DNA of 64,000 bases, taken from the NCBI GenBank assembly GCA_964534175.1, contig CAZHNS010000009.1, forward strand, positions 460 through 64,459. The letters are read 5' to 3'. Within the stretch, counting starts at the first letter, position 1; every line of letters starts with the position of its first letter. The notes below the pieces were generated by a model, which saw only the letters and a program-made list of their open reading frames with translations, did not search any database and had not been told where the DNA came from. This DNA is from an uncultured bacterium (lineage in GTDB: Bacteria; Hydrothermota; UBA3072). Made by a program: the position numbers and the translations under genes. Below, one piece after another: positions 50,270 through 63,038 of the stretch.

Positions 50270-52678
50270 TCATTGCCTTTTTTTTAAAAGAAAAACCGCT
50301 GAAGTAAGAAAAATTATAACCCCTAGTAAACTTAATAAGGAGGCAATATTAAATACCCTGGACTCATAGACAAAACGCAACTCATGTTCTCCTTCCGGAA
50401 CAAAAACCCCGTAGAAAATGTAATTAGCTTTATATATTTTTTCTTTTTTACCGTCTATATAACACTTCCAATCCGGATGATAATTCTCTCGAATAATAAG
50501 AAAAGCCGTTTTACTGGTTTTAACCTCTAAAACCTTTTCATTTGCAATCATCCTAACAACATCAACATCTCCCTCGCCTTCTGAAAGGGTAATATCCGGC
50601 TTTTTCTCTAAAATAGCAATACTTCCCGGAATAAATTCCGGAGATAAAATCTCATTTAACACATCTTGAGCACTGTCAACCACCTTATACTCGTACATAA
50701 GAGAAGCTCTCGGCAAGAAGCTTTCATTTTTTAGAACTTGATACTCCCTTCCTGCAAAAGCAACATCAAAATTTGAATAGAAATCTCTCAACTCTTTTAT
50801 AACCTGCTTAACTCTTTCCGTGTAAGGAGTCAAATCTTCAGGAAGGCGAGGAACTATTAGGTATTTAACATTCAACATAGAGAGCGCATGAGGAAATTCA
50901 AAGAAATTGGGGGCACTAAACATTACACTTCCTTCGGCTCCAATAAATTTTTGATATCTACCGGGAGGATTTGGGCCATACCCGGCCACACTATACATAT
51001 CATGGTAGTGAAAATAACCACTTTTCGCCCATTTATAATTCTCGAATGGAAATATCCTATATAAACTTTTATCCTGTGAAATATATCTGGTGACATCATC
51101 CATAGAATAGTAATTCCGAGGATGAGGAGCCACATTGAGATATTTCTTATCCACAGACCACTGATCTGCAATAAGGACAAGGATTAACAGAGATATAGCT
51201 GCCTTGAATTCTATTTTTTTTATTATTACAGAATAGATTATGCCACCATTAATAATAAAAAGTAGCGTTGCCAACCACAGGCTTTTTTTCAGATTCACGA
51301 AATTCTTAGACATTACAGCAATTTTTTGCTGAAGGTTTTGCCTTCCAATCTCCGCCCAAGCCACAGAGAAATGATGCTTCATAAAATTCAAGACACCCCT
51401 ATCTCCTATATTTACAATAAGGGTCACAAACAATATTAAGCCCATCGAAACTAAAACATATAAGATTACTTTCTTCTTTTCCTCCTCGTTTCTATTCTTT
51501 AATTCGTATAAAGCCTCCGCTCCAAATCCGGCTAGCACTGCAATACCAAAACTGGTAAGAAAGAAAAACATCGATGGAGCCCTGAATTTCTTGGCCATGG
51601 GAACCAGATAATAATAGATTCTAAAAATCGGGGTATTTTTCCCCAGGGCAAGAATTAAAGTAATACCAGTGAACCAGGCGAAATATTTTATAAGACATCT
51701 TTTTTTTCTGTAAAAGAAGGCTAATCCAACCATCATTATTGGTAATATACCGAGATACCTGGAATCCAGTTTAAAGAAATTCTCTCCCCAGTAATTATCA
51801 AGTATACCAGAAAAATGGGGTGTTATCAGATTAAATAATTCCGCGGTCGGCATCGACCATGAAGTCGAGTATGCGTAACCTCTAGTCGCCCCCCTTGCCC
51901 CATAACTTAAGGACAAAGCAGGAGGAATCAACTTTATAGCAACAACCATAAAAAGAATAACTATACCGGTAAAGAAAAAACAGGATAATATACTCATTTT
52001 TTTTAATCCCATCTCTCCTCTTCTTCTAAAGATCTCATAGAGAAAGAACATGACTACCCCAATCATACTCCAGTAAGTAATTTGAATATGTCCAGCCAGT
52101 ATAAAAATCCCGGAAATCCCGCCAAAAATCAAAAAATCAGATAATCTCTTTCTTCGCATAGCTCTGGCAACGAAAAGAAAAGCAAAAGGTAAGAGCACCC
52201 CTCCAATCGTCCTACCTAAATGCCCTCCCTGAGTAGTTGTTATTATTTGACCAGCAAACATATAAGAAACTGCTCCAACCAGGGAAGAAAATTGGGATAG
52301 ATCAAATTCCCGCAATAATAGCCATATCCCCAATCCCGCCAGAAAGACATGAATTATAAACATAAAAGTCAATCCTAAATGAATCGGAAAAATCAGATAA
52401 ACCAAATTAAAAGGATATACTAAACCGCCGGCACCGCCAGTTGCGACTCTCGGCTGTCCGGAAAAATTGTAAGAATCCCACATGGGAAAAACGTGATGCT
52501 CTTTCAAATAACTTACCCATCCGTTAGTTCCCGTATATCCGGAAAGCAGATAATCTGAACCATATATCATTTTGGAAGGAGTCAAGAATCCAATAAAGTA
52601 TATTATCGATATTAAAAACAAAAAGATTATTATAAATAATTTTAATTTACTTTTATCTTTTAAAATTTTTCTATTCAT
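50270..52678 (-). CDS. YfhO family GT-C membrane protein
   Basis: PMWDSYNFSGQP, multi-TM core, KFRAP, SMLNVKY, FLPRA, ENYHPDWKCYIDGK..IYKANY.F.GVFVPEGEH. Confidence 0.9.
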   Translation of the reverse strand: MNRKILKDKSKLKLFIIIFLFLISIIYFIGFLTPSKMIYGSDYLLSGYTGTNGWVSYLKEHHVFPMWDSYNFSGQPRVATGGAGGLVYPFNLVYLIFPIHLGLTFMFIIHVFLAGLGIWLLLREFDLSQFSSLVGAVSYMFAGQIITTTQGGHLGRTIGGVLLPFAFLFVARAMRRKRLSDFLIFGGISGIFILAGHIQITYWSMIGVVMFFLYEIFRRRGEMGLKKMSILSCFFFTGIVILFMVVAIKLIPPALSLSYGARGATRGYAYSTSWSMPTAELFNLITPHFSGILDNYWGENFFKLDSRYLGILPIMMVGLAFFYRKKRCLIKYFAWFTGITLILALGKNTPIFRIYYYLVPMAKKFRAPSMFFFLTSFGIAVLAGFGAEALYELKNRNEEEKKKVILYVLVSMGLILFVTLIVNIGDRGVLNFMKHHFSVAWAEIGRQNLQQKIAVMSKNFVNLKKSLWLATLLFIINGGIIYSVIIKKIEFKAAISLLILVLIADQWSVDKKYLNVAPHPRNYYSMDDVTRYISQDKSLYRIFPFENYKWAKSGYFHYHDMYSVAGYGPNPPGRYQKFIGAEGSVMFSAPNFFEFPHALSMLNVKYLIVPRLPEDLTPYTERVKQVIKELRDFYSNFDVAFAGREYQVLKNESFLPRASLMYEYKVVDSAQDVLNEILSPEFIPGSIAILEKKPDITLSEGEGDVDVVRMIANEKVLEVKTSKTAFLIIRENYHPDWKCYIDGKKEKIYKANYIFYGVFVPEGEHELRFVYESRVFNIASLLSLLGVIIFLTSAVFLLKKRQ

Positions 52679-52919: not shown

Positions 52920-54239
52920 GTGCTTAAAGAGAATAAAAAAGACAGAGATATCAAAGGCGAAGGTGTAATAAGAGGTTCCATTTATATAATTATAGGGCAA
53001 GTAATAGCTGGGATATTCCTATTTTTATTTCAGATTTTAACGGGCAGGTGGTTGGGGGTGAAATACTATGGTATTCTTAACATACTCTACTCCTATATAT
53101 TAGTTTTTAACGTTTTTATGACCAATGGGGTAACACACGGGCTTACAAGATATATTTCTTTTTTCCAGGCAAAAGATTTAAAAAATAAGATAAAAGATAC
53201 AATTCAGATATCATCCTTAATATACTTGATTTTTATTCTATTTTTTTTATTGATAGCAATCATCTTTAGAAAAAAAATACTCAATAATTTCTTTAATAAT
53301 ATGGAAACACTATATTTCCAATTCATTCTGGGAGTTTTATCTCTTTCGTTATACAGCTTTTACGATGGGTTACTGAGAGGGAATAGAAGATTCTATATTT
53401 CTTCAATAGGTTTTGTAATAAAAGCCCTTTCAATGCTAATTATAGTTTTCTTAATAATACCATGTTTAAAACTTTTAAAAATTCATGCTGGATGGAGTTT
53501 TGTTATAGCCCCTATTATACCGATTTTTTATTTTAAAATGGTATTAAAAAATACAATTATTTCTCCGGATTTTAAAAACCCAAATGAATTTGATACTAAA
53601 ATTGTTAAGTTTATAATTATGAGCTGTATTATAGCTGTATTAAATACATGGATAGTAAGATCGGGTCCAATCCTTTTAAAAGTAGTAGGAAAAGCTAATT
53701 CGGATTCACTCGCCGGTTTATTCAGCGCCACTATGATGCCATTAAATTTTGTAAGAACTTTAGTTCTTGCATTTTTAGGAGCTCTTTTCCCAAATCTAAC
53801 AAGAGCATACTCTCTTAAGAATGAGAATTTAATAAAAAGATATACTTATAAAAGTTTAGGTGTAGTAATAATGTTAGTTGTATCTGTAACACTTTTTTAT
53901 TATTTCTTAGGCCCTCAAACAATTAAACTACTCTACGGAAAAGATTTTTCTATCTCTAGATCTACCGCGTTTATACTATCCCTTGCAATATCTTTACTAC
54001 TACTCGGAATGTTACTCTCCAGAATACTAATGGCAAGAAACACCCCACATGTCTCAGTAATTTCATTAATATTGGGAGTAACCGGGATGTTTACATTTCT
54101 ACATCTAAGAAACATGGAACCAATGGAACTGGTTTGCTTCTCTATACTTATTTGTAATACAATATACTTCGGAATCCAATCATTATATTTAACAATAATA
54201 AAAATAAGACATCTTAAACTAACAGCTCAACAAGAATGA
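52920..54239 (+). CDS. Oligosaccharide flippase (Wzx/MOP family)
   Basis: ~12-14 hydrophobic helices, LTGRWLG..YYG, LFPNL, LLYGKDF; GTG start. Confidence 0.85.
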   Translation: MLKENKKDRDIKGEGVIRGSIYIIIGQVIAGIFLFLFQILTGRWLGVKYYGILNILYSYILVFNVFMTNGVTHGLTRYISFFQAKDLKNKIKDTIQISSLIYLIFILFFLLIAIIFRKKILNNFFNNMETLYFQFILGVLSLSLYSFYDGLLRGNRRFYISSIGFVIKALSMLIIVFLIIPCLKLLKIHAGWSFVIAPIIPIFYFKMVLKNTIISPDFKNPNEFDTKIVKFIIMSCIIAVLNTWIVRSGPILLKVVGKANSDSLAGLFSATMMPLNFVRTLVLAFLGALFPNLTRAYSLKNENLIKRYTYKSLGVVIMLVVSVTLFYYFLGPQTIKLLYGKDFSISRSTAFILSLAISLLLLGMLLSRILMARNTPHVSVISLILGVTGMFTFLHLRNMEPMELVCFSILICNTIYFGIQSLYLTIIKIRHLKLTAQQE

Positions 54240-55447
54240 GAATTCTTTATATAACCACCGCTTTTCCAAGAAACTCCAACGATCCCATTACACCATGGTT
54301 AGTTAAAACAGTCACAATGCTAAACGAAAAGGGAATTAAAATAAATGTCTTTACATCTTCATATAAGGGCCTAATTTTCAACCGAATAAAGAACATCGAC
54401 GTTTTCCGATTTCGTTATTTTATAAAGTCTTTCGAGAGGTTAACACATGAAGAAATGGCTCTCGATAGAGTAAGAAAGGGCGGAATATATAAAATATTAC
54501 CTCTATTCTATATATTGTTTGGGATAATTGGAATAATTAAACATTGCAAAAAAGAAAAATATGATATAATACACGTTCACTGGCCATTTCCACATTTCAT
54601 TTTTGGGTATATTGCCTCAAGAATGCTTAGAGTTCCTCTTGTTTGCACATTTCACGGAGTCGGTATTCGTTTTATCAAGAAATCATCTATAAATCTGGAT
54701 TTTTTTCTTAACTGGATTATTAAAAAAAGTGATCTAATTACAGTAAACTCAACTCATACTGCTAAAGAACTCATCCCTTTCAACCCTAAAAATATATCTA
54801 TAATACCTTTCGGGGCTGCCGTGGAGCCTGAAGACATTTCAAAAAAAGAAAACATCTCGAAAGAAAATAACCACGATACAACGAAACTTCTATTTGTGGG
54901 AAGATTGGTTGAAAGAAAAGGCGTGGAATATCTCCTCCAGGCTGTAAAAAACTTAAAAATGAAAAAGAAAGTCAAATTAATAATAGTAGGCGAAGGTGGA
55001 CTAAAAGAAAGTTTATTAAAAAAGAGAAATCAATTGAAACTATCAGATAAAGATGTTAAATTTGCAGGAAAAATATCGGGGGGGAAATTAAACGAATATT
55101 ATAAAAACTGTGATATCTTTGTACTTCCGGCTATTATAGATTCAAAAGGGGATACTGAAGGTTTGGGAGTCGTTCTTCTTGAGGCATTGAGTTTTAAAAA
55201 GGCAGTCATTGCTTCAAGAGTTGGGGGCATCGTTGATATTATCAAAGATAAAAAAACCGGTTTATTAGTGAAAGAAAAATCTGCCGAAGAATTAGCCTCT
55301 GCCATTGAATTTCTCATAAACAATCCAAAAGAAAAAGAAAAACTAGCTAGAAAAGGGTATGAATTTCAAAAAAAGAATTTCAGTTGGGATAAAATTTTAT
55401 CCTCAATAATCTCACAGTATAAAAATATAACTTCTAAGACCGTTTAG
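54236..55447 (+). CDS. GT4 glycosyltransferase
   Basis: DIIHVHW, FVGRLVERKG, IVGEG, DIFVLP..TEGLGVVLLEA, IASRVGGI.DII. Confidence 0.95.
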   Translation: MRILYITTAFPRNSNDPITPWLVKTVTMLNEKGIKINVFTSSYKGLIFNRIKNIDVFRFRYFIKSFERLTHEEMALDRVRKGGIYKILPLFYILFGIIGIIKHCKKEKYDIIHVHWPFPHFIFGYIASRMLRVPLVCTFHGVGIRFIKKSSINLDFFLNWIIKKSDLITVNSTHTAKELIPFNPKNISIIPFGAAVEPEDISKKENISKENNHDTTKLLFVGRLVERKGVEYLLQAVKNLKMKKKVKLIIVGEGGLKESLLKKRNQLKLSDKDVKFAGKISGGKLNEYYKNCDIFVLPAIIDSKGDTEGLGVVLLEALSFKKAVIASRVGGIVDIIKDKKTGLLVKEKSAEELASAIEFLINNPKEKEKLARKGYEFQKKNFSWDKILSSIISQYKNITSKTV

Positions 55448-55458
55448 AATAAGACTTA

Positions 55459-56079
55459 TCAGTATTTAACAATATTTCCTCTACGCATAAAAAAATTCTT
55501 TAACCGTCTCAGAATCTTCCTTCCAGGTTTAGTGGGTTCCAGGTGATAATAATTCACCTTCGGGAAATCGGTATCAGGCACAGCTTTTCCAAGGAAAGGA
55601 CACAATTTTTCCCATCCGTCACCATTACAAATATCCATAATTAATAGATTCCCTCTATTTTTAAAAAAGTCTTTAACTTTTTGGTTATGCTCTTTGTAAC
55701 ATTTAAGAAATGTTTCTTCGGAGAAATGAGTAAGGCCTGAAAATATCTTGGTCATAATATATTTATTAGCTTTTTTCCAGGGAACCACAAATTTAAAATG
55801 TCTTCTGGCTGAATCTAACCACTTATTCTCTTCTCTCACTGTAAGGATAAATTTTGCATCAGGATATAATTCGTATAACTCTTTATATAAAAAAGCGATA
55901 GAACCTATAAATGCATCTCCTCTCTTCAGGAATTGAGAATTTTTAAGAATTTTATTCCTGTATTCCTGCGCTATCTCAACAGGATCATGAAATACCTTAA
56001 AATTAAGTATTTCCAATGCCAGAGCCAAACTGGAGGTAGCAGTCTTAGGATAACCTATTCCAAATGTTTTTTCACTCAT
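55459..56079 (-). CDS. Sulfotransferase (Sulfotransfer_4-like family)
   Basis: 5'-PSB loop GIGYPKTATSSL, PDAKFILTVR..W..S, DGWEKLCPFLGKAVP..FPKVN. Start ATG 56079 after GGAG (alternative 56091). Confidence 0.9.
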   Translation of the reverse strand: MSEKTFGIGYPKTATSSLALALEILNFKVFHDPVEIAQEYRNKILKNSQFLKRGDAFIGSIAFLYKELYELYPDAKFILTVREENKWLDSARRHFKFVVPWKKANKYIMTKIFSGLTHFSEETFLKCYKEHNQKVKDFFKNRGNLLIMDICNGDGWEKLCPFLGKAVPDTDFPKVNYYHLEPTKPGRKILRRLKNFFMRRGNIVKY

Positions 56080-56080
56080 T

Positions 56081-57193
56081 TTATCTCCCATTTATACATT
56101 GATAATAAAACTTTTCCTGCTGTCTTGATATCCAATCCCAATTATACTTCCTTGCCCATTTCCTACCTTCTTCTCCAAGCCTCTTCCTCATTTTATTATT
56201 ATGTATAATCTCATACATAGAACTGCCCAAGCCTTTCACATCCTCGGGGCTAACTAAGATTCCTGTCTTGCTGTCTATTATAACTTCTTGAAGAGAGGAA
56301 GTTCTGGTACCTATTATTGCCTTACCAGATGCCGAAGCTTCCATAGCTACAATCCCCCAAGATTCAAATCTAGACGGCATACATACAAAAAGGGCGCTGG
56401 ATAATAATTGCCTCTTTTTCTCCCTTTCAAAAATCTTTCCAATAAATTTAATCCTGCTCTTCATTGTTGATTTACTTATCAGATGTTTTAACTTTTCCTC
56501 GTCTTTACCTCCCCCAGCTATCACTAATTCTATCCCTTTTACCCTCACAGCAACTTTCTCAAAAGCCTTTATTAGAATATCAATTCCTTTCTGGTAAATA
56601 TCTATTCTACCCAGAAATAGGATATAGGCCTTCTCGGAAACCACAGCATCAAACAAATACTCATCTACCCCGTTGGGAATAACTACATTTTTTGTACTCT
56701 TATTAATCAAAAATTTGTTTTCCAATTTCTTTTTTATATAAGTAGATACCGAAATAAAATTATCATAAAGTTTTAATCCGAGCTTTTCAAACACAATAAA
56801 AAATATACCGATTAAACCATGAGTTTTTATTGCATGTTCACTGTAAAGATTCTGAATTGATGCTATAACTGGTCTTTTAGTGAAAAGAGGGATAAAACAG
56901 GGAGAGTGCGCCGAAAATTCATCTATAATTAAATCATATTCCAGCTGTTTTATATATTTCCAAGCCATTAAACCAAAAGAAAGTCTGCTCAGAAAGTAAC
57001 TTTTTTTAGATCCTATCCTAATATATTTTATACCATCTTTTATTTGGTCCCTGGCTCCCGGATAATTACCGGTAATTATAGTTATATCATGTTTTTCCGA
57101 TAGCCTTCTTGAGATTTCATAGACCCTTAAAGCTCCACCACCTCCTACCCAAGGATTTCCTAAATCATCATAGATTAAATGAATTATCTTCAC
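56081..57193 (-). CDS. GT4 glycosyltransferase
   Basis: P..GGGA.R, IPNGVD, FLGRI..QKG, PSRFESWGIVAMEA; GTG start. Confidence 0.95.
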   Translation of the reverse strand: MKIIHLIYDDLGNPWVGGGGALRVYEISRRLSEKHDITIITGNYPGARDQIKDGIKYIRIGSKKSYFLSRLSFGLMAWKYIKQLEYDLIIDEFSAHSPCFIPLFTKRPVIASIQNLYSEHAIKTHGLIGIFFIVFEKLGLKLYDNFISVSTYIKKKLENKFLINKSTKNVVIPNGVDEYLFDAVVSEKAYILFLGRIDIYQKGIDILIKAFEKVAVRVKGIELVIAGGGKDEEKLKHLISKSTMKSRIKFIGKIFEREKKRQLLSSALFVCMPSRFESWGIVAMEASASGKAIIGTRTSSLQEVIIDSKTGILVSPEDVKGLGSSMYEIIHNNKMRKRLGEEGRKWARKYNWDWISRQQEKFYYQCINGR

Positions 57194-57197
57194 GAAA

Positions 57198-58757
57198 TTA
57201 AATATATCCTAAATCTTTCAGGTGATCCTTCACTGATGCGTCTTCCTTCTCCGAAAGAAAGAAAGTCTTCTTTTGCTCATAAGGGAGATTCTTGAAAACT
57301 TCTTTAACAGAACCTGCTTCAATATAATCCTTCAGAATATTACCATCAACGTCTTCCGGAATTGGTAACTCGCCCAAGGCACAGGCAGTAGGGAATACAT
57401 CTCTGACAGAAGCTCTTTCTATTTCCTTGCCTTCTATTATACCTTGACCATGCATAAGAATAATCCCATCCATCGCACAAACATGATGCCCTTCCAGAGC
57501 AGGTCGGTCCAATTTCTTATCGAATAATCTTCCCGGCAAATTTGTATTTAGCCGGTAATTTCTTGTAGTTGTATATGTTAAATCTGGCATTTCCTCAAAA
57601 AATTCTCCTTTATATAATTCCCACTTAGTTTTTGCATCAAGAAAAATACTCTCTCCATTTGCCGGATCTTTTGCCTCTAAAAGCAATTTTTTCAAATCTT
57701 CTGCTGTTTTTTTTCTACTACCAGTATCCGGATAATATTCCGGGTTTAAATAGATTCCTGCATACCAATTTGCATATGCTTTTGTTTTACTCCAATCTAC
57801 TTTTGAACTCATAGTTTCTCTGACAATTTGTTTTTTAAAGTTATCGGGCAATAAATACTGTACAAAATTAAATTTTTTTACCACCGCTATTCCAAATTTA
57901 TAAATCAAGTTAGAAAACTTTCCTTTAATATGTTTCGCTCGTTTTAAATAACCATTGTCTTCTAAGTACTGATTTATATAAAAATATTTCTGTGGGGCAT
58001 CAGTAAAACCGTGGTCTGAAACAAAAATTATTCGGTCTGGTTTTTCCTGTTCGTATATCTTTTCTACATTCTTTTCCAACCTTTTTAAATATTCTAATAC
58101 CTTGCTTTTATCCTTCCAGAAATAATGCATAAAATCATCAAATTCCTTAAAATTTATCATAAATAGATTCATCTCGTTTTTAGCAAGAAGTTTTAATACC
58201 CACTCGGTCCTTTCTTCCATAATTTGAATAAGAGCCTTTTCCACCCCTGGTTTGTCAATATTGCTATCACGAAACCACTTTTTTTCTATATTTATTCTGT
58301 ACCCCTCAATTTCATCAATAAGTTCAGGTGGGTAAGTAAAATCCAAAGAACCTCTTGGCGTCATAAAACCTGCTATAAGAAATCCATTAACTTCTGTGGG
58401 AGGATAACTTACTGGTATATTTACAATACCAACTTTACTCCCAAATTCAGAAGCCCACTCCCAAAGAGACCAGGTTTTTATATCAGTAAAATTAATAAAT
58501 TGAGCTGAAGAGAAATGTTCAGGATCAAATCCTTTTTTATCACTTTTATATAAGAAAGGCCCAATTTTTGCAGGATTTTTGCCTGTAAATATCACAGGCC
58601 AGGCCAGCATCGAATATGACGGAAGCGTACTTTTTAACTTGCCAAAGGCACCCTGCTTTGCAAGTTTAGAAAAAAAAGGTAAATCACCATTTTCAATCCA
58701 TTCTTTTACTTCCTTGTAGGGGGCTCCATCAAGCCCAATAATAAAGAGTTTTTTCAT
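57198..58757 (-). CDS. Alkaline phosphatase superfamily protein (type I phosphodiesterase/NPP-like), paralogue 2
   Basis: IIGLDGA, STLPSYSMLAW..FTGKNP, NIPVSYPP, FDDFMH, VSDHGF, EGHH, C-terminal HLKDLGYI. Confidence 0.9.
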   Translation of the reverse strand: MKKLFIIGLDGAPYKEVKEWIENGDLPFFSKLAKQGAFGKLKSTLPSYSMLAWPVIFTGKNPAKIGPFLYKSDKKGFDPEHFSSAQFINFTDIKTWSLWEWASEFGSKVGIVNIPVSYPPTEVNGFLIAGFMTPRGSLDFTYPPELIDEIEGYRINIEKKWFRDSNIDKPGVEKALIQIMEERTEWVLKLLAKNEMNLFMINFKEFDDFMHYFWKDKSKVLEYLKRLEKNVEKIYEQEKPDRIIFVSDHGFTDAPQKYFYINQYLEDNGYLKRAKHIKGKFSNLIYKFGIAVVKKFNFVQYLLPDNFKKQIVRETMSSKVDWSKTKAYANWYAGIYLNPEYYPDTGSRKKTAEDLKKLLLEAKDPANGESIFLDAKTKWELYKGEFFEEMPDLTYTTTRNYRLNTNLPGRLFDKKLDRPALEGHHVCAMDGIILMHGQGIIEGKEIERASVRDVFPTACALGELPIPEDVDGNILKDYIEAGSVKEVFKNLPYEQKKTFFLSEKEDASVKDHLKDLGYI

Positions 58758-58763
58758 GGAAGG

Positions 58764-58791
58764 AATATAAAATTAACGATTGAAATGTCAA
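58764..58791 (-). promoter_or_regulatory. Promoter TTGACA-N16-TATATT, 6 nt from the ATG (apparently leaderless)
   Basis: TGTCAA at 58786-58791, AATATA at 58764-58769; ATG at 58757. Confidence 0.75.
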
Positions 58792-58865
58792 GGGTAGTAC
58801 AAAATGATATAATGCCTATCGTTTAAAACAAAGTAAGAATCTTAGATACAGAAATAATTTTGGAT

Positions 58866-60155
58866 TTAACTTCCGAGATTAAGTGTTATCCGGAGAGGAT
58901 CTTGAATAGAATCCACTTTATCTAAATCGATTCCTCTTCCAAAGATAACCGCATCTTCATAAGTATGCATACCATCAATCGCACCGGGCTTCTGGCAAAC
59001 CTCACCAGTATTTACATTTCCTTTTAAATCGAAACCCCATTTCGGATGAACTATTACGTCCGCCGCGTTCTCAATATAATCTCCAGAATATATCTCTTCA
59101 CGCAGGAAAGCTTTTTCTATTATCTGTTCACCCTCAGGGGATTTTAAATTCAGTAATTTTTCTTTTAGCTCTTCTCGTAATTTACCATAATCGTCAGTTG
59201 AAACAGAACCCTTTGCTTCTCTCTCCTTCAGATTTATAAAAATCCTTCCCGGAATAAGTGAATAAGCTTTCGAGTTAGGACTGAGTTCTGTAACATTTCT
59301 AGGATTATCAACATCCCAAAGAAGATAGCCTTCATCCTCTAAAAACTGATTTAACTGAACATTATATTTTACTCTGCAGAAACCATGGTCGGATAAAACA
59401 ATAAATATATCTTCATCACCCAGTAATTCATACGTTTTCCCTATCCATTCATCCAATTTAGTATAGAATCTGTCAAAGTCGCCCCTGAACTCACCGCCAT
59501 CCTCATAATCTCCCCAGAAAAAATGGTTAATTCTGTCTGTTTCCATTATATGACATTGAGCAAGAAAATAATCATCCTTTGCCAATAAATCAAAGAATAC
59601 TTCCATCCTTATATCGAGCGCTTTATGTAACTCATCCATAAATTTTCTTCTATTAGTATGTCCAAATCTTGGGTCGACATCGATAATATATCCCTTTTCC
59701 TTTAAATACCCAACGTAAGAAGAAGGCTTCACCACTTTTTCGATACTTGGTGTAAGGAAACCGGATATTAAAATACCGTTAACTTCCTCAGGTGGATAAG
59801 TGACGGGAACATTCAGGACAAGAACTTTCTTTCCCTCTTCGGAAAGTTTCTTCCAGAGAGTTTTGGCTGTTCTGTCCGATGCAAGAGGAATTTTTAAAGT
59901 AAAAGGTTCGTTATTTCTATCTACAAAACCAAAAATAGAATGTTCCGCGGGATTTTTTCCGGTCAGATATGAAGTCCATGCTACCGAAGAAACAGTTGGA
60001 TAAACCGAATTATACTTTTTTAAATTTTCATTTTCACTTGTTATCTTTCTTATATTCTTAAACCTTCCCTCATCTAACTCGGCTTTTAAAAAGCTGTACG
60101 GAACGCCATCTATACCTAAAACAACTATTTTTTTCTTTTTTTTCCTAAAGAGCAT
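58866..60155 (-). CDS. Alkaline phosphatase superfamily protein (type I phosphodiesterase/NPP-like), paralogue 1
   Basis: VLGIDGV, SVYPTVSSVAW..YLTGKNP, NVPVTYPP, TDRINH, LSDHGF, DGMH. Confidence 0.9.
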   Translation of the reverse strand: MLFRKKKKKIVVLGIDGVPYSFLKAELDEGRFKNIRKITSENENLKKYNSVYPTVSSVAWTSYLTGKNPAEHSIFGFVDRNNEPFTLKIPLASDRTAKTLWKKLSEEGKKVLVLNVPVTYPPEEVNGILISGFLTPSIEKVVKPSSYVGYLKEKGYIIDVDPRFGHTNRRKFMDELHKALDIRMEVFFDLLAKDDYFLAQCHIMETDRINHFFWGDYEDGGEFRGDFDRFYTKLDEWIGKTYELLGDEDIFIVLSDHGFCRVKYNVQLNQFLEDEGYLLWDVDNPRNVTELSPNSKAYSLIPGRIFINLKEREAKGSVSTDDYGKLREELKEKLLNLKSPEGEQIIEKAFLREEIYSGDYIENAADVIVHPKWGFDLKGNVNTGEVCQKPGAIDGMHTYEDAVIFGRGIDLDKVDSIQDPLRITLNLGS

Positions 60156-60170
60156 TAAAATCTCCCTTAT

Positions 60171-60932
60171 TTATAGGACTTTAATCAGAGTAGCCAACCC
60201 AAGACAAACAGTTATCACTCCAATCGCAATAACGTGCTTTTTTACATCACTATTTTTTACTACACGAACCGCAAAAGGTATAGCAATAATACTTCCAAAT
60301 AACAATGGCAAAACGGGCATAAAGTTGATAATTCTTACTTTCAAAAGATAAACTAAAAGAGCTACCAGACAGGTTATTGCTTCGGTAAATGAACTTATAC
60401 TAACCGAACTTTTTGAATCTAAACCGGATAAAATCTGCCCGCTTGTAATAATCGGACCATAACCTCCTCCGCTTATTCCCTTGTTAAACGAAGCAAAAAA
60501 ACCAAGAAAATTTATTTTCACCCAGCTAAAACCAATCTTTCTTTCCCTAAATACAAGTACCAGCACACCCATCAAAAAAGCTATTAAACCAACATATATT
60601 TTCACAAAGAATTGTGAAAGATTTACAGCAAGAAATGCAGCGCTTCCGCCGCCTATTATACTAAAAAAGGTCAAGACCATCGCAATTTTAAATGATTTAC
60701 TGTCAACGGAAAAATCTACATTTCCAGAACGGTGATGAAATATAGCAGAAAGTATTCCCGTAAAAACTTGAACGAAAAGAAGAGAAGGTACAATTTGAAT
60801 GGGATCGAACCCAAGTAAAATAAAAGAAGGCACAACAATAGTACCAAAACCTTCGCCGAGCGCAGTATTCAAAAACTGCGCGATAAAAGATACAGCTATT
60901 ATTAGAATTATAACAGAAACACTAAATTCCAC
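60171..60932 (-). CDS. TauE/SafE family sulfite/sulfate transporter
   Basis: TALGEGFGTIVVP, GISGGGYGP, 8 TM; GTG start. Confidence 0.9.
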   Translation of the reverse strand: MEFSVSVIILIIAVSFIAQFLNTALGEGFGTIVVPSFILLGFDPIQIVPSLLFVQVFTGILSAIFHHRSGNVDFSVDSKSFKIAMVLTFFSIIGGGSAAFLAVNLSQFFVKIYVGLIAFLMGVLVLVFRERKIGFSWVKINFLGFFASFNKGISGGGYGPIITSGQILSGLDSKSSVSISSFTEAITCLVALLVYLLKVRIINFMPVLPLLFGSIIAIPFAVRVVKNSDVKKHVIAIGVITVCLGLATLIKVL

Positions 60933-60941
60933 GAAACTTTC

Positions 60942-62174
60942 TCAAAGAATAATACCACCGGCAACTACGTCATTGCCTCTTATTAGAACAAATCTTCCCA
61001 TTTCCTTTACGTCTCCAAATTTTGTAAAAGCAAGCGGTTTTTTTGTTTTTATCTCTACTTCCCCTATCTCGAGATTATTAATCGAAGAAGCTTTTTCCTC
61101 TAGAACCTCTAGCGAGGAAGAATCTACTCTCTCTTTAATTTCTGCAATATTTGCCTTGGTCTCCTGCGTTGCCAAACGGAGACCTATTTTTTCGTCCTTG
61201 CTGAAAGGTTCTTTTGACAACCATATAAGACTGGACTGGATCTTATCCCCTATAGTAAGATCCTTTTCTTCTACACAAAGAACAATCCCTCTCTCCAGGA
61301 AAACAGGGTCAGCAGTTGTAATACCAATCGATTCTCCTGCCACAGCTTCATTCACCGATTCTCTAAACTTTTCTATGGATTTTACAGTGGTCTTACCTCC
61401 ACCGGGGAGTATTTTTACTTCCATTCCGGACGAAAGAGTTCCCGCTTCGATTCTGCCCACCGCAATCCTCTTACCGGATATTTTATAAACATCCTGAACT
61501 GGAAAAATAAGACTCTTATTTTCCGGAGGAACTTCGTTCTTTAGAGAATCGAGTGATTCAAGTACGGTTTTACCTTTATACCATTTCATATTCTTGGAAT
61601 GCTTTGCAACATTATCTCCCTTTAAAGCCGAAATAGGTATGTAATAATCAGGTTTTAAATTTACCGAATTTAAAAATTGATGAACTTCCTCTTTAAGACG
61701 ATTGAAATGAGCTTCTTCATAATTTACTATGTCCATTTTATTTATTACTACAATTATTTGCTCCATTCCCAACATTGAAACCAGATTAGCATGTCTCTTT
61801 GTTTGCTCTCCGACTCCTTCCTTTGCATCCACAATCAACAAAGCAGCTTCTGCCTGGGAAGCTCCTGTCAGCATATTTTTAACAAATTCGACATGTCCCG
61901 GTGCATCTATAATTACATATTCTCTTTTTTTAGTGTGGAAAAAAGTATGAGCAGTATCTATTGTTATACCCTGCTCTCTCTCTTCTCTTAAGTGATCCAT
62001 TATAAAGGCGAATTCCATCTCTCCATCCATCCTTTCTTCTGAGGCTTTTTTAAGTTCGGCTATCTTGTCAGGGGGGAGAGAATTCGTATCATAAAAAAGA
62101 CGCCCTATTAAAGTGGACTTTCCATGGTCAATATGTCCGACCATGACAAACTTTAGAGGATTTTTACCAGACAT
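60942..62174 (-). CDS. cysN: Sulfate adenylyltransferase subunit 1 (GTPase), no fused APS kinase
   Basis: GHIDHGKSTLIGRL, EREQGITID, DAPGH, TGASQA, NKMD, SALKGDNV, FPVQDV, GRFVL; 410 aa. Confidence 0.93.
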   Translation of the reverse strand: MSGKNPLKFVMVGHIDHGKSTLIGRLFYDTNSLPPDKIAELKKASEERMDGEMEFAFIMDHLREEREQGITIDTAHTFFHTKKREYVIIDAPGHVEFVKNMLTGASQAEAALLIVDAKEGVGEQTKRHANLVSMLGMEQIIVVINKMDIVNYEEAHFNRLKEEVHQFLNSVNLKPDYYIPISALKGDNVAKHSKNMKWYKGKTVLESLDSLKNEVPPENKSLIFPVQDVYKISGKRIAVGRIEAGTLSSGMEVKILPGGGKTTVKSIEKFRESVNEAVAGESIGITTADPVFLERGIVLCVEEKDLTIGDKIQSSLIWLSKEPFSKDEKIGLRLATQETKANIAEIKERVDSSSLEVLEEKASSINNLEIGEVEIKTKKPLAFTKFGDVKEMGRFVLIRGNDVVAGGIIL

Positions 62175-62180
62175 AAAGAA

Positions 62181-62981
62181 CTACATATATCCGAGAGCAC
62201 GCAGTTTCTGCATCATATAATCTGACTCTTTATCCTGGGCTCTACCACTTCTCTCGGAAATATCTGTTTCCTTAAGCTCTTTAATTATTTTATCAAGAGT
62301 ATCAGCATTTGAATCGACCGGGGCAACACAGGGCTCGCAACCAATACTCCTGAAACGTTTGCCTTTTTTCGCGAAATAAAGACTCACCACCGGAATTTCT
62401 TCTTTTTTAATATATTTCCAAATATCTAATTCCGTCCAACCAAGAAGAGGATGTACCCGTAGATGTTCTTCTTCTTTAGCCTTTGATTTATACTGGTCCC
62501 ATAGCTCCGGAGGCTGATTTTTGTAATCCCATTCGAAATCTTCATCACGCGGAGAAAAAACTCTTTCTTTAGCTCTTATCCCATGCTCATCTCTTCTTAT
62601 ACCAAGGTAGAGAGCTCTAAACCCGTATTTATTGATAGCATCCCTTAAGGCATTGGTTTTCAACTGGGTACAACACTCCAATTTAGCCTTCCCCGGTCCC
62701 ATACCTCCGGCAATAGCTTTCTCATTACGATGTACAATAAGTTTTAGATTCCATTTTTTCGCGTATTCATCTCTAAACTCATAAATTTCTTTAAACTTAT
62801 AACCGGTATCTATATGCACCACCGGAAACGGCACTTCTCCCAAAAAAGCTTTCCTTATAAGATGAATAAGCGTTGTAGAATCCTTTCCAATTGACCATAA
62901 AGCAGCTACCTTCTGGAACTGATTATATGCTTCTCTTATAATATAAATACTGTTATTTTCTAATTTTTTTAAATGATCCAT
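62181..62981 (-). CDS. cysD: Sulfate adenylyltransferase subunit 2 with CC...CxxC motif
   Basis: LE..SIYIIRE, WSIGKDS, HIDTG.KF, GIRRDE..RAKER.FS.RD..WD..NQPPELW, RVHPL..WTE.DIW.Y. Start ATG 62981 after GGAGG; adjacent to cysN. Confidence 0.92.
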   Translation of the reverse strand: MDHLKKLENNSIYIIREAYNQFQKVAALWSIGKDSTTLIHLIRKAFLGEVPFPVVHIDTGYKFKEIYEFRDEYAKKWNLKLIVHRNEKAIAGGMGPGKAKLECCTQLKTNALRDAINKYGFRALYLGIRRDEHGIRAKERVFSPRDEDFEWDYKNQPPELWDQYKSKAKEEEHLRVHPLLGWTELDIWKYIKKEEIPVVSLYFAKKGKRFRSIGCEPCVAPVDSNADTLDKIIKELKETDISERSGRAQDKESDYMMQKLRALGYM

Positions 62982-63010
62982 TATTCCTCCCGAAGAAGAA
63001 TTTCCGCAAT

Positions 63011-63038
63011 AAATTAATATTTTAACCATTAATGTCAA
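63011..63038 (-). promoter_or_regulatory. cysD operon promoter TTGACA-N16-TAATTT
   Basis: TGTCAA at 63033-63038, AAATTA at 63011-63016. Confidence 0.6.

Follow-up and report, generated by a model that had tools for sequence, protein, structure and literature searches.

Two adjoining genes in a 64,000-nucleotide (nt) stretch of DNA from an uncultured Hydrothermota bacterium of the lineage UBA3072 (assembly GCA_964534175.1, contig CAZHNS010000009.1, positions 460 to 64,459; hereafter the window, with positions counted from its first letter) encode soluble enzymes of the alkaline phosphatase (AlkP) fold that probably contribute to the sulfation of glycans, as judged from sequence comparisons. 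We call them AlkA (58866..60155, minus strand, 429 amino acids (aa)) and AlkB (57198..58757, minus strand, 519 aa). The more specific reading that we favour, and hold tentatively, is that they form an AlkP-fold glycan-sulfation module, where the part of core partner would fall to AlkA and that of a variable transferase to AlkB. AlkA is tied to sulfate activation by its position and its phyletic distribution, and AlkB by its position and a shared C-terminal tail. Both genes lie within a run of seven tightly packed minus-strand genes, from 63038 to 55459, in the order cysD-cysN-tauE-AlkA-AlkB-GT4-Sulfotransfer_4 (GT4, glycosyltransferase family 4), with intergenic distances of 4–15 nt or overlaps, except for 108 nt between AlkA and AlkB. 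The original prediction, made from the letters of the window, of tandem AlkP/NPP (nucleotide pyrophosphatase/phosphodiesterase) paralogues inside a sulfate operon was borne out by this order, by the PF01663 scores (AlkA 118.2 bits, AlkB 101.6 bits, cut-off 23; no other Pfam family in either protein) and by the 28% identity of the two paralogues (E 5e-34). Automatic annotation names them “AlkP superfamily phosphohydrolase/phosphomutase”.

As had been expected, no signal peptide was found in AlkA or AlkB, nor a membrane segment: the maximum Kyte–Doolittle hydropathy over 19 residues was < 1.0, and in the AlphaFold2 models the core, with the first beta-strand and the GxDG motif, begins at residues 8–16. 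Both are predicted to be cytoplasmic, unlike NPPs with their secreted or ecto topology. The metal-ligand motifs were located in both proteins as originally described, in AlkA as GIDG (residue 14), DRINH (207), SDHG (255) and MH (396–397), and in AlkB as GLDG (8), DDFMH (207), SDHG (247) and HH (424–425). The putative nucleophile is Ser56 within PTVSS (residue 53) of AlkA (codon 59988–59990) and Ser49 within PSYSM (46) of AlkB (codon 58611–58613), and this serine aligned with the nucleophile Thr64 of phosphonoacetate hydrolase (PhnA). The absence of the CxPxR sulfatase motif also held for both proteins, and neither contained the broader formylglycine-sulfatase motif [CS]x[PA]xR. In AlkA, residues D16, S56, D207, H211, D256, H257 and H397 never vary, and their counterparts are kept in AlkB. 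The proposed serine nucleophile was thus found in both window proteins and is invariant across 70 AlkA orthologues, where the threonine typical of NPPs is absent; in AlkB it is not fixed, being replaced by threonine in the orthologues of two loci (L006 and L007). The six metal ligands and a nucleophile were retained in every PF01663 paralogue tabulated, and the active sites of AlkA and AlkB are predicted to be catalytically intact and of the two-metal type.

The AlphaFold2 models had mean confidence (pLDDT) values of 96.6 for AlkA and 91.3 for AlkB. The structures closest to the AlkA model were phosphonoacetate hydrolase (Z 27.9) and NPP (Z 26.6), followed by PafA-type phosphatases (Z 22) and sulfatases (Z ~18), and the best fold matches of AlkB were ENPP1 and Xanthomonas (Xac) NPP. 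Sequence identity to these structural matches was 12%–18%, and a sequence search against solved structures gave no significant match. Although PhnA was the best structural match of AlkA, the score against the PhnA equivalog TIGR02335 was 17.6 bits, compared with a cut-off of 407.55. No Pfam match to the classical sulfotransferase families PF00685, PF13469 and PF17784 was found in AlkA or AlkB, the fold of which is NPP/PhnA-like instead.

A scan of one genome per species yielded 433 AlkA relatives, and the loci of the best 80 of these were surveyed. Halothermothrix orenii and Calderihabitans maritimus are among the carriers that have been cultured. Activation genes (cysDN or sat/cysC) were located within 5 kb of AlkA in 64 of the 80 loci, corresponding to 64 of the 71 informative ones; nine loci had < 3 kb of upstream sequence and were uninformative, and the other seven had no activation genes nearby. 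The lack of an association with cysDN had been named beforehand as the outcome that would count against the original prediction; the association is clearly present in these 64 loci, which come from many phyla. AlkA directly follows cysN in 23 loci (with tauE in between in 11) from WOR-3, Stahlbacteria, Omnitrophota, Spirochaetia, Planctomycetia, Auribacterota, Nitrospirota and Bacillota. In a further arrangement, it directly follows the gene for adenosine 5′-phosphosulfate (APS) kinase in 31 loci from KSB1, Calditrichia, Cytophagia, Chloroflexota, Zixibacteria, Syntrophobacterales and Latescibacterota. A role of AlkA as a substitute for APS kinase was rejected, because the kinase that it follows in these 31 loci is a true one. 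The seven loci without nearby activation genes are still glycan loci, encoding GT-C, Wzy-type and WecA-type enzymes. All 10 genomes tested in which AlkA stands apart from activation genes encode an APS kinase at another site, a weak indication given that 11 of 14 controls have one too.

Recurring neighbours of AlkA included a sodium/sulfate symporter, Usp, DUF2061 proteins, CysQ-type and PHP-type phosphatases, flippases, Wzz, glycosyltransferases and sugar-nucleotide enzymes. In six loci, AlkA is followed by CysQ-type or PHP-type phosphatases of 3′-phosphoadenosine 5′-phosphate (PAP), which suggests that something encoded there consumes 3′-phosphoadenosine 5′-phosphosulfate (PAPS). A PAP-phosphatase function for AlkA itself, one of the options offered by the original prediction, was marked down on account of these neighbours. 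Classical sulfotransferases were rare near AlkA: Sulfotransfer_3 was found in three of the 150 nearest unlabelled open reading frames (ORFs), and Sulfotransfer_1 or Sulfotransfer_4 in three more loci. In one Anaerolineae glycan locus, the position directly upstream of AlkA is taken not by cysDN or cysC but by a gene for a 220-aa PAPS_reduct-domain protein (CysH or a short CysD-like protein; L039:5109-5768).

The phyletic distribution of AlkA is nested within that of the activation genes. CysD or APS kinase is encoded in 46 of 151 genomes sampled from the window's phylum (a base rate of 30%) and in every one of the 37 with AlkA; AlkA was not found in nine genomes with CysD or APS kinase and in 105 with neither. 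Within the family to which the window belongs, AlkA and CysD occur in one identical set of 13 genomes, and seven others lack both. Likewise, the ten taxonomic families bearing AlkA all fall among the 13 families, of 35, that have activation genes. In the window's own genome (91% complete), AlkA and AlkB are the only PF01663 genes. A Sat-CysC fusion (577 aa; contig C5:57984-59714, corresponding to L083:9482-11215, minus strand) located beside gyrA is the sole APS kinase found in that genome; it does not carry the tail and constitutes a separate, second route of sulfate activation. No match to sulfite reductase was found in this 91% complete genome, and CysD was the only clear match to the PAPS-reductase family, apart from a weak 23-bit match in a 505-aa frame on contig C3. 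Since no sulfate-reduction genes were found, the activated sulfate most likely serves sulfation rather than assimilation.

A tree of all PF01663 proteins in the 80 loci, together with a table of active-site residues, separated the paralogues into clades. The slowly evolving AlkA clade is represented in every locus, with lengths of 425–455 aa and 41%–54% identity across phyla; besides Ser56, its invariant residues are H72, N115, R183, R208, R304, R312 and K378, and R80 and C260 are near-invariant. Members of a second clade, AlkC (~462 aa), have a threonine nucleophile and are encoded between ATP sulfurylase and APS kinase. AlkC is joined in six loci to the C-terminal end of ATP sulfurylase, giving proteins of 864–907 aa with the architecture PUA_2 + ATP-sulfurylase + Phosphodiest (L036:6608-9241; also L040, L053, L058, L060 and L071). 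The window's AlkB belongs to one of several fast-evolving clades with lengths of 515–700 aa. Orthologues of AlkB with at least 44% identity occur only in WOR-3-type lineages, elsewhere the identity is ~30%, and most of the invariant basic residues of AlkA are missing from AlkB. In distant cysDN loci, median identity to the window proteins was 74% for CysD, 60% for CysN, 50% for AlkA and 24%–28% for the nearest AlkB-like protein. The original prediction had treated the two paralogues as alike; their conservation, active-site surroundings and tails differ, and they probably have different roles. No relative of AlkA made longer by fusion turned up in a search for such proteins. One reading frame, in locus L075, was called with a 540-residue N-terminal extension lacking any Pfam domain, probably owing to an over-called start. 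PF00884-like proteins are encoded by separate genes in eight related loci; none is encoded in the window.

AlkB is also linked to sulfate activation by a short tail, defined as LxxLG[YF] followed by up to three residues at the C-terminus. The tail is carried by 103 of the 3307 complete ORFs in the 80 loci, nearly all of them in a few protein groups: APS kinase (35/38), CysD (22/23), AlkB-type variable PF01663 paralogues (18 proteins), a small RHH/CopG-like protein (11/11), DUF2061 proteins (6/7), PF00884 sulfatase-like proteins (4/8), AlkC (3/57) and Sulfotransfer_3 proteins (2/3). It was found in none of the CysN, TauE and GT4 proteins and almost never in AlkA. In the window, CysD ends with KLRALGYM (62181-62204), and AlkB has a C-terminal extension that closes with HLKDLGYI (57201-57224). 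The terminus of Escherichia coli CysD is KKRQGYF, which suggests that CysD ancestrally ended in GY[FM]; no such tail is present in E. coli CysC. Within the phylum, stand-alone APS kinases ending in RLExLGY[IL] were found in 11 of 11 AlkA-positive genomes sampled, the APS kinases of all five AlkA-negative cysDNC-cysQ genomes lack this tail, and the Sat-CysC fusions likewise are without it. This distribution implies that the tail co-varies with the presence of AlkA. Eight of these AlkA-positive genomes (families f21 and f30) retain the APS-kinase tail with no AlkA match within 2 kb or on the contig of the kinase. The tail places AlkB alongside enzymes that make the donor and alongside established or candidate sulfotransferases, and it probably marks a docking system. 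AlkA, as the one constant protein without a tail, might then be the most economical candidate for the docking partner. Outside the window, the same genome contains a 70-aa ORF ending with KQRLEKLGYL (C1:14654-14863, minus strand) beside a second TauE paralogue (C1:13614-14411); this ORF may encode a further tailed small protein of the module.

Taken together, a sulfation pathway of the following kind can be proposed. CysDN makes APS, TauE is probably the sulfate importer, and the Sat-CysC fusion encoded elsewhere in the genome can make PAPS. The active-site serines of AlkA and AlkB would accept the sulfuryl group from APS or PAPS. A serine O-sulfate ester is resistant to hydrolysis. The sulfuryl group would then be passed to a hydroxyl group of a lipid- or nucleotide-linked glycan supplied by the neighbouring GT4 enzymes, so that sulfation of the glycan would precede its flipping across the membrane by Wzx. 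One common partner might be the docking site for the tails of CysD, APS kinase and AlkB; the tail-less AlkA is the best candidate for it, and the donor could be handed over within the complex. Sulfuryl transfer is made plausible by the absence of other sulfotransferases from most loci, by the PAP phosphatases encoded next to AlkA, by the lack of reductase matches in the window's own genome, by the fact that several variable paralogues can share one locus, by the tail shared with real sulfotransferases, by the occurrence of AlkA in glycan loci without activation genes and by the genetic precedent of Agl30/Agl31 (PMC11980604).

Several observations weigh against such a sulfation module. The window's classical sulfotransferase could alone account for sulfation. 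The 41%–54% identity of AlkA across phyla would be less expected of an enzyme with varied glycan acceptors than of one acting on a universal small substrate (pyrophosphate, APS or PAPS, for example), and the fusion of AlkC to ATP sulfurylase fits the removal of pyrophosphate equally well. The neighbourhood and phyletic counts were drawn from related genomes and are not independent, and docking is deduced from the co-occurrence of the tail only. Furthermore, in two Halanaerobiales loci (L049 and L074), AlkA and a tailed 546-aa paralogue flank plsY, after a gene of the metallo-beta-lactamase fold, and these loci contain no sulfate genes. The only tested AlkP-fold sulfotransferases that we found in the literature are members of the sulfatase family PF00884 rather than of PF01663 (PMC11980604). 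A literature search on the PF01663 family of AlkA (COG3379, AlkP-superfamily sulfotransferases, CysD tail) retrieved nothing, and no assayed member.

The main alternative is that AlkA is an accessory hydrolase, removing pyrophosphate or another by-product and thereby pulling the unfavourable ATP-sulfurylase step, while the classical sulfotransferase performs the sulfation and AlkB has a separate role. We consider this doubtful, yet it deserves serious attention. It would account for the location of AlkA beside the activating enzymes (adjoining cysN or cysC in 54 loci) as a single copy per locus, for a conservation comparable to that of CysN in distant loci, as expected of a universal small substrate, and for the fusion of the sister paralogue AlkC to ATP sulfurylase. 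The same role has been speculated for the NPP of an archaeal Sat-pApase-NPP-APS kinase cluster (PMC8268124). In addition, neither a soluble pyrophosphatase of family I nor DHHA2, the marker domain of family II, was matched in the window's own genome, which contains one fragment of a membrane H+-pyrophosphatase, and the window has a classical sulfotransferase of its own. However, the “group-2” loci, with both AlkC and AlkA, would then hold two pyrophosphatases, CysDN is already driven by GTP hydrolysis, and AlkA also occurs in glycan loci without activation genes. A pyrophosphatase role would leave unexplained the tail that is common to APS kinase, sulfotransferases and AlkB-type enzymes and that co-varies with AlkA, and most loci would be left without any sulfate-transferring enzyme. 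The variant of this alternative in which the hydrolysed by-product is PAP is further weakened by the neighbouring CysQ-type and PHP-type phosphatases.

A further possibility, which we regard as distinctly unlikely, is that AlkA is at once a docking hub and a covalent sulfuryl relay (Ser56-O-sulfate), to which CysD or APS kinase, the variable transferases (AlkB-type, sulfatase-like and some classical sulfotransferases) and the small RHH-like or DUF2061 proteins are addressed via the LxxLGY tail. If true, activated sulfate would be channelled to acceptor-specific enzymes in a system organised unlike any described sulfation system.

It is very unlikely, in our view, that AlkA and AlkB instead use nucleotide-activated donors to attach phosphodiester decorations (phosphoglycerol, phosphoethanolamine, phosphocholine or sugar-1-phosphate) to the glycan, or trim such decorations, the link with sulfate being the co-location of glycan-tailoring genes. 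Such chemistry is ordinary for relatives such as NPP, EptA and LtaS, and it would suit the PF01663 membership, the NPP-like folds, the glycan context of all loci and the Halanaerobiales pair beside plsY without sulfate genes. It offers no explanation, however, for the 54 loci with AlkA immediately next to cysN or cysC, for the fusion with ATP sulfurylase, for the 37/37 nesting against a 30% base rate or for the tail held in common with CysD and APS kinase. That the two are generic cytoplasmic nucleotide phosphodiesterases or pyrophosphatases with a housekeeping or scavenging function, in the operon by chance, is favoured only by the Pfam family name and the automatic annotation and is highly improbable given the synteny conserved over many phyla, the patchy, island-like distribution that tracks cysD exactly in the window's family and the tail in common with sulfate-activation enzymes; the original suggestion that they are sulfate-pathway enzymes rather than generic phosphodiesterases was strongly supported by the synteny in the 80 loci, the AlkC–Sat fusion, the phyletic nesting and the AlkB tail.

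The remaining genes of the operon are consistent with sulfate activation within a glycan locus. The gene for the small subunit of sulfate adenylyltransferase, cysD (62181..63038, minus strand; PF01507, E 7e-45; NF003587, 364 bits), was listed as a frame beginning at TTG, 19 codons before an ATG at 62981 (extra stretch 62982-63038); the true start is probably this ATG, giving 266 aa as in orthologues, and the longer form an over-call. The GTPase subunit is encoded by cysN (60942..62174, minus strand; TIGR02034, 365 bits against a cut-off of 336), and neither a fused APS-kinase domain nor the LGY tail was found in the window's CysN. The TauE/SafE-family anion permease (60171..60932, minus strand; PF01925, E 6e-28) is probably the sulfate importer of the module. 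The 108-nt spacer between AlkA and AlkB (58758..58865, minus strand) contains a promoter-like site, TTGACA-16-TATATT at 58791-58764 on the minus strand, which agrees with the consensus at 11 of 12 positions and is the best in the region; such sites are no more numerous here than in shuffled controls. This site is a hint that AlkB, GT4 and the sulfotransferase may have a transcription start of their own. The GT4 glycosyltransferase (56081..57193, minus strand; PF00534, E 3e-37) lies 4 nt past AlkB, and its gene overlaps by 11 nt with that of the tail-less classical sulfotransferase (Sulfotransfer_4; 55459..56091, minus strand; PF17784, E 4.5e-36). Convergent to the operon are genes for a second GT4 enzyme (54236-55447, plus strand) and a Wzx-type flippase (52920-54239, plus strand), and beyond the latter is a YfhO-like membrane protein (50270-52678, minus strand). 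The region is a surface-glycan locus. The best-named homologues are from candidate division WOR-3.

Sulfated surface glycans are widespread, and many clusters of activated-sulfate genes have no recognisable sulfotransferase. The AlkA family adjoins both types of sulfate-activating enzyme in many phyla and accompanies 37 of the 46 genomes of this phylum that have activation genes. If its members transfer sulfate, they would represent a large class of sulfotransferases that has gone unrecognised and works by a metal-dependent, covalent mechanism, and many “phosphodiesterase” annotations in glycan loci would need to be re-read. If AlkA is a pyrophosphatase, it would be a new dedicated helper of sulfate activation. 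Under either reading, the shared tail points to a physical complex.

Compared with known enzymes, AlkA and AlkB share with NPPs (Xanthomonas NPP, ENPP1-7) and PhnA the fold, the two-metal site with six ligands and the position of the hydroxyl nucleophile. AlkA differs from them in having an invariant serine in place of threonine, in being predicted to be cytoplasmic rather than secreted and in its additional invariant basic residues H72, R183, R208, R304, R312 and K378. Among sulfation systems, glycan clusters of the NodPQ plus NodH-like type contain their own copy of cysDN(C) and a PAPS-dependent sulfotransferase; the window, too, has a cysDN copy and a sulfotransferase, the Sulfotransfer_4 protein. 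NodPQ/NodH-type systems are not known to need an AlkP-fold partner. In contrast, AlkA is the constant partner in the loci surveyed here, and the classical transferase is usually missing.

The closest counterpart in gene order is a cluster of the archaeon Pyrococcus yayanosii (PYCH_17530-17560), which consists of ATP sulfurylase, a DHH pApase, a type I phosphodiesterase/NPP and APS kinase (PMC8268124). Its PF01663-type protein (of the AlkA or AlkC clade) lies between ATP sulfurylase and APS kinase, with CopG-like and TauE genes nearby, mirroring the bacterial order Sat-AlkC-CysC-AlkA with a small, RHH-like tailed protein. The proposal that the archaeal NPP degrades pyrophosphate was made without an assay, and the cluster was described as assimilatory (PMC8268124), whereas the cassette in the window is part of a glycan locus. 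The closest counterparts in proposed function are Agl30 (VNG1056C) and Agl31 (VNG1057C) of Halobacterium salinarum, which were identified by deletion and heterologous expression as AlkP-superfamily N-glycan sulfotransferases (PMC11980604). Agl31 belongs to the arylsulfatase family and both Agl proteins were described as closest in structure to glycan sulfatases, whereas AlkA and AlkB are PF01663 proteins structurally closest to PhnA and NPPs. Nevertheless, Agl30 and Agl31 are encoded in a glycan cluster and add sulfate to the sugars of a lipid-linked glycan, and Agl31 is soluble and cytosolic; AlkA and AlkB are likewise encoded in a glycan locus and predicted to be soluble. The two archaeal enzymes indicate that the AlkP fold can serve sulfation, as we propose for AlkA and AlkB.

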